A stretch of 38,179 nt of DNA from a virus (Duplodnaviria; Heunggongvirae; Uroviricota; Caudoviricetes): IMG/VR virus record IMGVR_UViG_2585427736_000016, one strand, 5' to 3'. Each line of letters starts with the position of its first letter. Position 1 is the stretch's first letter. Of the stretch, positions 6,103 through 8,402 are shown piece by piece. The notes under the pieces are model-generated. The model made no database searches. It was not told the DNA's origin and worked only from the letters and a program-made list of their open reading frames with translations. Made by a program: the position numbers and the translations under genes.

Positions 6103-6408
6103 TCAATCGTAATAAGCTGGAATTGATTTTCCGCGTTGCTTCTGGCGACCAACACAAGTCACACCCATTTCACTGCGTGGCTTGCTGTAGTAAATACGGT
6201 TCTGTTTACGTTCGACTTCTTCTGCCTTCTTGCAGCGAAGGCTTCCGAGTGATGCTGCTTTATCTGCTCTGACGCAACCAGAGAGCTTTAGCGCAATTTT
6301 TCGCGCCAGTCGCTGCTCTTGCATTGCCTGTTCACGTTGAGCCTGTCTGCGTGCTCTGCGGCGATTTCTGGCGTTATCGTCAGCCAGATATGTAATGACT
6401 ACTGTCAT
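6103..6408 (-). CDS. N: N-type transcription antiterminator, 101 aa
   Basis: Arginine-rich N-terminus (NARNRRRARRQAQREQ) and C-terminus ...RKQNRIYYSKPRSEMGVTCVGRQKQRGKSIP resembling lambda N (...RKNQRTWYSKPGERGITCSGRQKIKGKSIP) as recalled; GGAGG SD; first gene after PL and nutL. Confidence 0.75.
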   Translation of the reverse strand: MTVVITYLADDNARNRRRARRQAQREQAMQEQRLARKIALKLSGCVRADKAASLGSLRCKKAEEVERKQNRIYYSKPRSEMGVTCVGRQKQRGKSIPAYYD

Positions 6409-6720
6409 GTTGACCTCCGATGAAACAACTTTGGAATTGATAGTGATTGCAAAGTGGTTTCTGGCCCCTCGAACTGAGGGGCAGAAAGAGCATCTCGCCA
6501 CCTAATAGGTCGATGCTCGGATCGAGAGATTTAATTAACCTCGGTTTTGAAGTTATGCATTCACATAAATCCTCCTACCTCTTGTGCAGCTTTCTTGAAT
6601 ATGGTGGCGGCTGCATAACGCCTATGGAATTGACTTTGGCGGTGACGCGCCGGGTGCTTATCTTCCGGTTGCCGTCGTGCAGCTGCACTTCACGTCACCC
6701 CAAAGCCAACTACTCTTTGG

Positions 6721-6764
6721 TTCCCGCATTTCGGCGGGACAATCCCATCAATGTTAAAGAGCCT
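6721..6764 (-). promoter_or_regulatory. nutL (boxA GCTCTTTAAC plus boxB hairpin)
   Basis: Minus strand carries GGCTCTTTAAC then hairpin CCCGCCGAAATGCGGGAA; the same boxA 10-mer and an 18/18-identical boxB recur at nutR downstream of cro. Confidence 0.75.
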
Positions 6765-6804
6765 GCCAATCTGTTCCGTTTGGCTACCAGCGTCCTGCTG
6801 ATGG

Positions 6805-6900
6805 CTAAAGAGTACTGTAGGTATTTTATTGTGTAAATACCCAAGGTATTTATTTTTGGTGAAATAATGATAAGCAAATGAATACAAAGGATATTTATTT
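6805..6900 (-). promoter_or_regulatory. OL operators and PL promoter region
   Basis: Three 15-bp dyads of type A(A/G)TAC-N5-GTATT (AGTACtgtagGTATT, AAATACccaagGTATTT, GAATACaaaggATATT) matching the two OR dyads; candidate -35 TTTACA and -10 about 17 bp downstream on the minus strand. Confidence 0.5.
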
Positions 6901-6982
6901 TTTTCGGTGTCTGCTTGTTCAGTGCTTTTTATGCGGGATATGTGAAGTGGATCCCGATAGCTATTGCTGCCGGGATTATGGG

Positions 6983-7351
6983 TTAGTCAGCGAAGGTTAA
7001 GACGAGAATTACCTTAATGATGTCTGCTACAACAGACACGGCCATAGATAAACCAAAGACGATCCAAGCCATAGAGATGTCTTCACTACCATCGTATAGG
7101 GTTCCGTAATCACTGGTGTAAGGCGTAAATGTCGCGCCTTGATACAATAGGTATAAGCTTGATCCATAGAGGATAAATGCAGATATCCCTTGTATTGCTA
7201 TGATCACCAGAATCATGAAACGAGCTGATCTATGCGCCCAAGCCTGGCTTATTTTTTCTGATAGAGTTTTCGCAATAAAAGCATGCGATAAGCCGTAAAT
7301 TGTCGAGATTGCCAACATCCCAAAAAAGCTTGCTATAGCGGTTCCAACCAT
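6983..7351 (-). CDS. three-TM membrane protein cotranscribed downstream of the repressor (rexAB / sieB-position accessory gene), 122 aa
   Basis: Track ORF trimmed to the ATG at 7351 with AAGGGG SD, 18 nt after the repressor stop; three hydrophobic helices (VGTAIASFFGMLAISTIYGL, FMILVIIAIQGISAFILYGSSLYLLY, MAWIVFGLSMAVSVVADIIKVILVLTF); no recognisable family. Confidence 0.6.
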   Translation of the reverse strand: MVGTAIASFFGMLAISTIYGLSHAFIAKTLSEKISQAWAHRSARFMILVIIAIQGISAFILYGSSLYLLYQGATFTPYTSDYGTLYDGSEDISMAWIVFGLSMAVSVVADIIKVILVLTFAD

Positions 7352-7368
7352 AAGCGCCCCTTGCGTGA

Positions 7369-8085
7369 TCAAACCAGCCTTAGTTTTGTCTCAATTGCAA
7401 CGCCTATAATCTTGCAGTTTCCATTGATTGGCACGAGAGGCCATGCAGGGTTAAGTCCCTTGAGGTATTTATTTCCGCCGTCGATTATCAGCTTCTTGAA
7501 TGTTGCTTCGTTAGAGTCAGAAAGTTTTGCTATGACCAAGCTGCCGTTGATCGCCTCCCTTCCGGTATCGAAAAGAACGAATGTTCCCTCTGGAATGCTT
7601 AACCCAACCGGTGCCGTCATTGAATCACCTTCCACTTTAAGCCAAAACGCATTACCTTGAATATGCGCGTCAGACTCAAGCCAAACATCTATGTCTTTAA
7701 TGGTGTATGGTTCGCATGCTTCACACCACGAGCCAGCCTGGATACTGCTTAACACCGGATACCTCTTTCCTGCTCTGTATTCCCCTGCATACCTTACGTT
7801 GGCATCGCTCTTAAGGCTTTCTGCCTGTTCTGCAACCTTGGCAGCAATTGACTGGCTAAAATCAGCAATTGAGACTTGCAACAATCGTGCAAAACCAGAT
7901 GCAACCTCAACGTTTAGCGCGTTTCTGCCATTAAGATAATGTCCTACCGCTCCTTGGGTGATACCCAGTTCATCAGCGATTGAGTATTGGGTTATTCCCA
8001 ATTCTTTCTTTTTTGACTCATACAAAGCCTTAAGCCGCTTAGCGTCTTCGAGCTGTTCTGTCGTCAGTGATTTTTTATTTTCCAT
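7369..8085 (-). CDS. cI: CI/C2-type prophage repressor (HTH plus LexA-like S24 autopeptidase domain), 238 aa
   Basis: C-terminal half (...WLKVEGDSMTAPVGLSIPEGTFVLFD...ATFKKLIIDGGNKYLKGLNPAWPLVPINGNCKIIGVAIE) closely resembles the P22 C2 cleavage/dimerisation domain as recalled; N-terminal HTH (ITQYSIADELGITQGAVGHY); ATG lacks an SD, consistent with leaderless PRM mRNA. Confidence 0.9.
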   Translation of the reverse strand: MENKKSLTTEQLEDAKRLKALYESKKKELGITQYSIADELGITQGAVGHYLNGRNALNVEVASGFARLLQVSIADFSQSIAAKVAEQAESLKSDANVRYAGEYRAGKRYPVLSSIQAGSWCEACEPYTIKDIDVWLESDAHIQGNAFWLKVEGDSMTAPVGLSIPEGTFVLFDTGREAINGSLVIAKLSDSNEATFKKLIIDGGNKYLKGLNPAWPLVPINGNCKIIGVAIETKLRLV

Positions 8086-8091
8086 AGCTTA

Positions 8092-8165
8092 ATTCTAATA
8101 GCTAAGGTACTTAAACTAAAAATACCCTGAGTATTGATTGCTTTGAATACCTGTAGTATTCTTTG
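8092..8165. promoter_or_regulatory. OR operators with divergent PRM and PR
   Basis: Dyads AATACcctgaGTATT (8121-8135) and AATACctgtaGTATT (8146-8160) plus a weaker AATAGctaagGTACT (8097-8111); PRM -10 TAGAAT at 8092-8097, 6 nt before the cI ATG; PR candidate -35 TTGATT (8134-8139) and -10 TATTCT (8157-8162). Confidence 0.55.
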
Positions 8166-8191
8166 TTCATGGTTAATAACGGAGAGTGCAT

Positions 8192-8386
8192 ATGATTCGA
8201 ATGACACTTGCCGATTACGCCAAAATCCATGGACAGGCTAAAGCAGCCAGTGACTTTGGTGTAATCCAGTGCGCTATCAGCAAGGCCATTCTGGCAGGCC
8301 GTAACATCATGGTTACGGTAAAGCCTGATGGCAGTGTGATTGGAGAGGAAGTTCGTCCTTTCCCAAGCAACAAGAAAAACAAATAG
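8192..8386 (+). CDS. cro: Cro repressor, 64 aa
   Basis: [62 protein letters not shown] resembles lambda Cro ([63 protein letters not shown]) as recalled; GGAGAG SD. Confidence 0.85.
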
Positions 8387-8402
8387 TAACACCGCTCTTT
8401 AA

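Follow-up and report, generated by a model that had tools for sequence, protein, structure and literature searches.

HkaS, encoded directly after cI in HK620-type prophages and predicted to span the membrane with three helices, is a candidate anti-phage protein

The gene directly downstream of the cI repressor in IMG/VR virus record IMGVR_UViG_2585427736_000016, a stretch of 38,179 nucleotides from a member of the Caudoviricetes (the whole stretch is called the window here), is hkaS, which encodes a 122-aa protein predicted to cross the inner membrane three times. The reading of HkaS that we favour is that it acts against phages at the inner membrane, although we would put this at slightly short of an even chance. 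As a sequence feature hkaS is already known, having long been annotated in phage HK620. What is new in this analysis is its linkage to cI, its rate of evolution compared with that of cI together with a variable, predicted periplasmic loop, a survey of what relatives carry in the same slot, and a second, late-operon context.

The window is a mosaic P22-like (Lederbergvirus-type) genome with best matches to vB_EcoP-611R6 and HK620, and is identical to IMG/VR contig UViG_2609459831_000013. The HK620 protein (AAK28867.1) is the orthologue of the window's HkaS, with equal length, equal position and 96% amino acid identity. The stretch from cro through OR, cI and hkaS to OL is ~99% identical to HK620 at the nucleotide level across ~1570 nt, and the cI protein is 99.6-100% identical to those of HK620, mEpX2 and HK140. 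HkaS is 96-98% identical in HK620, HK140, mEpX2 and HK630, and the window's version differs from the common E. coli allele by two private conservative changes, A22S and S29T. The product is entered as 'unknown' in the HK620 record and as 'HkaS protein' in that of HK630, and it matches PHROG 6534, a family of unknown function, over residues 1-122 of 122 (E 3.5e-78). A preliminary description of this DNA had called the protein unassigned and without a recognisable family. The first claim is refuted by the HK620 annotation and PHROG 6534; the second stands for Pfam, NCBIfam and PADLOC and falls for PHROG.

The family is narrow. A tblastn search of 50,697 phage records found hkaS in 16, at 92-98% identity, including HK620, HK630, HK140, mEpX2, HZ41, vB_EcoP-611R6, phi296, phi367, HF4s and two Stx2c-converting phages. 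Among 5.8 billion proteins, a word-indexed search retrieved no more than 12 clusters, at 52-98% identity; they come from E. coli, Salmonella and Hafnia, and Enterobacter is also present among their members. When 1.84 billion representatives at 50% identity were searched exhaustively with a HMMER profile, one full-length cluster and a 44-aa fragment were all that came back. Source names throughout the family are 'hypothetical', 'uncharacterized', 'predicted' or 'putative phage' protein. Zero matches were found in NCBIfam or PADLOC even at E<=10, zero in a PDB sequence-profile search, and none above noise in PHROG beyond 6534. A Pfam hit to Cation_ATPase_C, at 17.3 bits against a cut-off of 27.3, was taken as noise from hydrophobic composition. 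No paper naming hkaS together with HK620 was found in a literature search, and literature searches for mEpX2, and for HK620 with RNA-seq, gave nothing on hkaS by title or abstract. As judged by these searches, HkaS forms an orphan family that does not extend beyond the lambdoid prophages of enterobacteria.

The preliminary description had placed a 122-aa open reading frame (ORF) with its own Shine-Dalgarno sequence directly 3' of cI on the same strand, and this was confirmed, except that the gap between the cI stop codon (7369-7371) and hkaS is 17 nt (7352-7368) rather than 18 nt. The hkaS ATG, the Shine-Dalgarno sequence and a spacing of 17-20 nt are kept in homologues of other genera, with an AAGG(A/G) motif at equal distance from the ATG in the Salmonella and Hafnia homologues and in those of an unassigned contig (L010) and a second genomic context described below (L205). 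A longer form of 129 aa, starting from a TTG at 7372 that overlaps the cI stop codon, was ruled out by an in-frame stop in Salmonella. No ORF lies in the window between cI and hkaS or further on before OL, and the small distance from cI leaves no room for an intervening terminator. A sigma-70 promoter scan of positions 6400-8400 found zero sites and missed even the pR and pL annotated in HK620, so it is uninformative on an internal hkaS promoter. In the homologous stretch of the HK620 record, where OL1-3, pL, tIMM, OR1-3 and pR are annotated, the order is cI, hkaS, tIMM, OL3-OL1/pL, nutL, N. Since hkaS follows cI by 17 nt and tIMM is placed after it in HK620, hkaS would share the transcripts of cI, made from PRM in the established lysogen and from PRE while lysogeny is being set up, and would be translated from its own ribosome-binding site.

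Hydropathy analysis (19-residue window) found three hydrophobic segments in HkaS, at residues ~1-27, 45-70 and 93-121. AlphaFold2, run on an 8-sequence alignment, gave a confident model (mean pLDDT 89.6, pTM 0.76) in which residues 2-29, 31-38, 41-74 and 89-121 are helical and residues 78-86 form a small beta-hairpin. The loop at residues 28-44 has a net charge of +3 (K28, K33, R41, R44 and E32) and that at 71-92 a net charge of -4 (D81, D87, E90 and D91). Under the positive-inside rule, this charge pattern would put the N-terminus and the second loop in the periplasm and the first loop and the C-terminus in the cytoplasm. HkaS is thus predicted to be an inner-membrane protein with three transmembrane (TM) helices in an N-out/C-in arrangement, with only the 17-aa loop and a 4-aa tail in the cytoplasm. 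The three hydrophobic helices noted in the preliminary description are borne out by both methods. The structure prediction and structural search proposed there gave a three-helix model whose fold matches were generic helical bundles only.

The linkage of hkaS to cI was assessed in 128 loci from IMG/VR, JGI/ENA metagenomes and earlier look-ups. A member of the cI family lies 17-20 nt upstream of hkaS in 125 of the 126 loci with enough upstream DNA. Three loci gave no cI match: L115 and L206 hold too little upstream sequence, and L205 is truly without cI. Among complete E. coli genomes, hkaS was found in 146 of 5426 (147 places), and cI in the same 146 (147 places). Likewise, the 16 records of the phage collection with cI at an identity of at least 99% are the same 16 that carry hkaS. 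Beyond them, the closest cI, at 71% in Serratia phage OS31, and every more distant one come without hkaS. Carriers of the pair span podoviral HK620, HK630, HK140, mEpX2 and the Stx2c phages. In Salmonella (L002-L005), in Hafnia-type metagenome contigs (L006-L009) and in L010, hkaS always lies between a 238-240-aa HTH_3/S24 repressor and the leftward N operon, and the replication and recombination genes around cI-hkaS are freely exchanged.

A strict functional tie between hkaS and cI was considered and is weakened by two types of loci. In an uncultured Buttiauxella (L036), where cI is only 60% identical, an HkaS homologue of 122 aa (54% identity, E 2e-48) starts 24 nt after cI, and metagenome contig L208 is of the same type. 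In L205 (overlapped by L206), which has no cI, a 61%-identical homologue with a retained TAAGGAC ribosome-binding site starts 21 nt after a tRNA-Met/Phe/Thr cluster (region L205:2393-4475). A Q antiterminator gene (PF06530, E 6e-23) lies upstream of this homologue, and genes for a P21-type holin and for a lysozyme follow it. An integrase C-terminal fragment lies beside a tRNA-Arg gene in L205, and the locus looks like a decayed prophage. We take this position to be the late-operon moron slot that stx genes occupy in Stx phages. The presence of hkaS in this slot between Q, the tRNA genes and the holin argues that, by its genomic distribution, hkaS is a mobile, self-contained moron and no obligate partner of the HK620-type cI.

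HkaS diverges faster than the repressor beside it. Against the Hafnia, Salmonella and L010 lineages, cI is 96, 86 and 89% identical and HkaS 81, 61 and 52%; Cro of the same lineages is 81-95% identical and N is unrelated. The ratio of non-synonymous to synonymous substitution rates (dN/dS, Nei-Gojobori, non-saturated synonymous sites) is 0.15-0.20 for hkaS compared to 0.02-0.03 for cI. Among E. coli-type alleles, the segregating changes are 28 non-synonymous and 25 synonymous in hkaS (pN/pS 0.34) compared to 7 and 47 in cI (0.04), and 35 distinct HkaS proteins are encoded compared to 13 cI proteins. By these measures hkaS is under purifying selection, yet evolves ~5-10 times faster than cI. 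In the loci recovered, 111 E. coli-type copies are full length at 122 aa, and the length is exactly 122 aa even at 50-60% identity. Invariant positions make up 33-37% of each helix and of the cytoplasmic loop across the family, compared to 2 of 22 (9%) in the predicted periplasmic loop, which changes fastest of all parts of HkaS. Invariant residues include Q54 in helix 2 and S106, D110 and K113 in helix 3, and the conserved motifs are K33-x2-Q-x-W-x-H-x2-ARF, YLL (67-69) and VLTFAD (117-122). Fast evolution together with a variable periplasmic loop fits contact with fast-evolving partners.

Between the close lineages L010 and L207, dS is 0.35 for hkaS, three times the 0.11 of the adjoining cI, which suggests that recombination breakpoints fell inside the immunity cassette, between the two genes.

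Genes cotranscribed with the repressor of lambdoid phages often exclude other phages, as reported for RexAB, Stk, Hex and BstA (PMC3564112, PMC8585504). RexAB, Stk of 933W and Hex of 434 are accessory genes cotranscribed from PRM (PMC3564112), bstA lies downstream of its repressor with a presumably common promoter, and the interval between cI and N, which holds rexAB in lambda, is a hotspot for such genes (PMC8585504). Genes 44 and 45 of epsilon34 are in the equivalent position (PMC2629481). To see what this slot contains in relatives of the window's cI, we searched GTDB with the cI protein, each species being represented by a single genome. The search gave 80 loci, with cI at 40-76% identity, in Lelliottia, Siccibacter, Enterobacter, Tatumella, Lonsdalea, Serratia, Pantoea, Proteus, Yersinia, Vibrio and other genera. 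Only one of the 80, L036, has an HkaS homologue. A slot ORF, defined as the first same-strand ORF of at least 80 aa within 350 nt downstream of cI, was present in 64 loci and was compared with PADLOC at E<=1e-5. The slot holds RexA in Siccibacter L012 (E 1.7e-109, also Pfam RexA) and BstA in two loci (best E 1.2e-115), one of them in Lonsdalea (L015). Further matches were to the PADLOC candidate families PDC-S42 (2), PDC-S43 (2), PDC-M63A (2), PDC-M03A (1) and PDC-M53A (1), and to capP (1), mad2 (1) and RmrA (1), so that ~14 of the 64 slot ORFs match defence families as the sum of per-family counts. In Pfam, slot ORFs matched NYN, the SocA/Panacea antitoxin domain, HATPase_c_3 and several DUFs, and three ORFs are N. 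On these matches, the post-cI slot of the cI relatives takes up varying cargo, among which defence genes, both validated ones (RexA, BstA) and candidates, are over-represented. This agrees with the preliminary description, which had seen in it the slot of lysogen-expressed exclusion and abortive-infection genes. Its label of a rexAB-equivalent slot holds for the position between cI and OL; HkaS itself is no relative of RexB and has no RexA partner, as detailed below. Expression from PRM and an exclusion or defence function, which it also put forward, are kept here as predictions.

Many slot ORFs of these Enterobacterales and Vibrionaceae, ~0-1000 nt downstream of the cI relatives (L011-L090), belong to no family and form a pool of candidate defence genes. 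One, in Ewingella (L081:2991-3359), is an unrelated 122-aa ORF lying 59 nt after the cI relative, with three hydrophobic segments by a crude hydropathy count and a zinc-ribbon-like CPFC...CKHC motif in its central loop. It is a second, independent small membrane protein in the post-cI slot.

We propose that hkaS is an accessory moron of the HK620-type immunity cassette whose product would protect the lysogen from superinfecting heteroimmune phages at the inner membrane. On the cytoplasmic side HkaS would expose a basic loop of 17 residues that includes a short amphipathic helix, and on the periplasmic side an acidic, Tyr-rich beta-hairpin loop. The scant cytoplasmic mass suggests action in the membrane or periplasm over sensing in the cytoplasm. 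We prefer interference with genome entry, in the manner of SieA, Imm or HK97 gp15, over abortive infection because HkaS is predicted to have little cytoplasmic surface, has no sensor partner, and has as its only well-exposed part the fast-evolving loop predicted to be periplasmic. T4 Imm and HK97 gp15 are single proteins of the inner membrane that block DNA entry. SieA of P22 is likewise an inner-membrane protein, necessary and sufficient to block DNA delivery (PMC10883804). HkaS resembles all three in being small, predicted to be membrane-embedded and without a partner gene. It has no homology to them in PHROG, Pfam or PADLOC, and sieA lies in the immI / ant moron, whereas hkaS lies in the cI-OL slot. 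BstA shares with HkaS a gene position directly downstream of a prophage repressor (PMC8585504). However, the BstA homologue found in the slot is ~300 aa long and is predicted to lack TM segments, and HkaS has no BstA match in PADLOC. BstA reportedly gathers on phage DNA that is being replicated (PMC8585504). In a more specific form of the proposal, which we regard as tentative and rather doubtful, HkaS would be a self-contained anti-phage protein of a new family that alone plugs or mis-gates the inner-membrane route of incoming phage genomes, or a membrane 'tripwire' that the ejection proteins of a superinfecting phage turn into a lethal pore. The conserved buried Q, D and K residues keep a pore or oligomer model in play.

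Several points weigh against an anti-phage role. HkaS has no sequence, profile or fold likeness to any known exclusion or defence protein. Its faster evolution could reflect relaxed constraint instead of an arms race, and hkaS may be so strictly linked to cI only because it hitch-hikes in the interval up to OL. A few copies are shortened or damaged: 77-aa and 111-aa forms occur in E. coli genomes, and in HF4s (MT833387.1 28106-28464) the match falls in two pieces over 359 nt, one nucleotide short, pointing to a frameshift. By these copies, hkaS is lost now and then. Most slot ORFs in relatives are without a defence match, and the PDC families of PADLOC are candidates only. Gene position is a weak guide to defence, with the slot also holding other functions; 434 Hex, in the same slot, stabilises the repressor (PMC3564112).

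HkaS could instead serve lysogenic conversion, binding or modulating a host inner-membrane protein such as a transporter, sensor kinase or protease and so altering host physiology or fitness, which we consider unlikely but the strongest of the alternatives. MgrB, AcrZ and MgtS are small membrane proteins that modulate host inner-membrane proteins in this way. Two parts of HkaS, the predicted cytoplasmic loop (KISQAW.HR.ARF) and the second half of helix 3 (D..K.I.VLTFAD), vary little between E. coli, Salmonella, Hafnia, Buttiauxella and metagenomic lineages, as a conserved host partner would require; in addition, hkaS is kept in the apparent degraded prophage remnant of L205, and its carriers are phages with very different virions. 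However, HkaS has no homology to known small-membrane-protein regulators, its exposed periplasmic loop is poorly conserved, and defence genes are over-represented at this position in relatives.

Somewhat less probable is that HkaS is an abortive-infection effector, its oligomer forming a latent ion pore, like RexB or a holin, that is triggered by infection, collapses the membrane potential and kills or arrests the lysogen. Lambda RexB is a polytopic inner-membrane protein encoded between cI and OL (PMC8585504), so that hkaS is in the rexB position. RexB has four TM helices and 144 aa compared to the three and 122 aa of HkaS, and hhalign of the HkaS profile against RexB gave a probability of 0.9%, with no Pfam (E<=1) or PADLOC (E<=10) match. 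No RexA gene adjoins hkaS, with a gap of 17 nt to cI and no other ORF before OL, and a RexA-like sensor is thus missing from the locus. The genuine RexA in the post-cI slot of Siccibacter L012 shows that HkaS is alternative cargo rather than a diverged Rex. Class I holins have three TM helices in an N-out/C-in arrangement, and the predicted topology of HkaS agrees with theirs. The polar and charged residues invariant within its helices (Q54, S106, D110, K113) would suit a pore, and the L205 homologue lies ~600 nt upstream of a holin in a late operon. However, HkaS ends in LVLTFAD and lacks the charged C-terminal tail typical of holins, it has no holin match in Pfam or PHROG, and hkaS lies in the immunity region and not in a lysis cassette. 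Its scant cytoplasmic surface also speaks against the sensing of an infection.

HkaS may, thirdly, act on its own prophage, setting when lysis occurs or tuning lysogen stability or induction; Hex does the latter by preventing the repressor cleavage that RecA stimulates. We consider this improbable. hkaS is associated one-to-one with a single cI family across five genera, and Hex offers a precedent from the same position in phage 434 (PMC3564112), with which the window shares the slot, the PRM-cI-X layout and a 52% identical cI. Hex excludes P22 and lowers spontaneous induction (PMC3564112). However, HkaS is unrelated to Hex (hhalign probability 0.09%), and Hex, with a signal-peptide-like N-terminus and a soluble body, does not have the three-TM architecture of HkaS, which is predicted to be almost wholly membrane-embedded. 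HkaS also has scant cytoplasmic surface with which to touch cI or RecA, and the L036 and L208 loci, with cI only 60% identical, and L205, without cI, speak against an obligate tie to the repressor. Finally, that hkaS is a non-functional passenger ORF is very improbable and largely refuted: its position between two elements that must remain together, its orphan status and its occasional truncated copies would suit hitch-hiking, but a dN/dS of 0.15-0.20 across lineages close to saturation at synonymous sites and 111 full-length E. coli-type copies argue that it is no chance ORF, as do a length of exactly 122 aa at 50-60% identity, a conserved Shine-Dalgarno sequence and a second genomic context (L205) in which that sequence is retained.

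In phage 434 itself (L209:2109-2513), hex is annotated as 'repressor protection protein' and overlaps the cI stop codon. The Hex N-terminus is signal-peptide- or lipoprotein-like (MIRIAALLSILLTTSANSEC), which is hard to square with reports that it acts in the cytoplasm, on the repressor cleavage that RecA stimulates.

The features of the locus are collected in Table 1. The operator pattern occurs in the whole window at five distinct sites (eight strand matches) compared to 0.28 expected, and the sites are confined to OL and OR. They flank cI and hkaS, which places hkaS inside the immunity region proper.

Table 1. Features of the hkaS locus and its surroundings in the window
Feature	Position	Strand	Basis and remarks
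hkaS coding sequence (122 aa + stop; 369 nt)	6983..7351	-	ORF and translation
Shine-Dalgarno sequence AAGGGG	7357..7362	-	read from sequence; 5 nt before the hkaS ATG
Acidic, Tyr/Gly-rich loop of HkaS, codons 71-92, predicted beta-hairpin, inferred to be periplasmic	7076..7141	-	charge, model and conservation
cI repressor, 238 aa, HTH_3 (E 8e-10) and Peptidase_S24 (E 5e-24)	7369..8085	-	Pfam; heads the predicted PRM operon
Three OL operator sites AATAY-N5-GTAYT, with PL	6811-6825, 6836-6850, 6881-6895	.	pattern search; left border of the immunity region
OR operator sites	8121-8135, 8146-8160	.	pattern search; between cI and cro, PRM/PR region
N-type antiterminator	6103..6408	-	PHROG 271 (E 1.3e-36) and a weak Pfam N_peptide match; heads the PL operon and adjoins the immunity region on the left
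Stem-loop without U-tract	6951..6976	-	RNA fold; begins 7 nt past the hkaS stop

A stable stem-loop of unrelated sequence, with no clear U-tract, also lies just 3' of hkaS in the Hafnia, Salmonella and L010 loci (L007, L002 and L010). Such a hairpin is possibly a weak terminator, an mRNA-stabilising 3' hairpin or a processing site. The tIMM of HK620 is annotated farther downstream than this hairpin, beside OL3. Further to the left, at ~6426-6627, the window has ~200 nt more than HK620 between the nutL region and the N start codon, including a GC-rich hairpin (GCCCCTC-AGTTC-GAGGGGC, ~6462-6480), and identity to HK620 picks up again at the N ribosome-binding site.

The HK620-type immunity cassette is carried by ~2.7% of complete E. 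coli genomes (146/5426) and by the model phages HK620, mEpX2, HK140 and HK630, as well as by Stx2c-converting phages. If HkaS excludes phages, it would be a new and very small single-protein membrane defence, tractable in established genetic systems, and would bear on the host range of E. coli phages in therapy and on the passage of phage DNA across the inner membrane. If it does so as a self-contained protein of a new family, its presence in two moron slots, between cI and OL and between Q, tRNA genes and holin, would mark hkaS as a one-gene defence module that moves among the lambdoid phages of enterobacteria, Stx2c phages among them. If HkaS instead modulates host physiology or prophage stability, this would explain a conserved, lysogen-expressed gene in the prophages of pathogens. 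Either way, the slot survey gives quantitative support for the cI-N slot of this cI family as a hotspot of defence genes.

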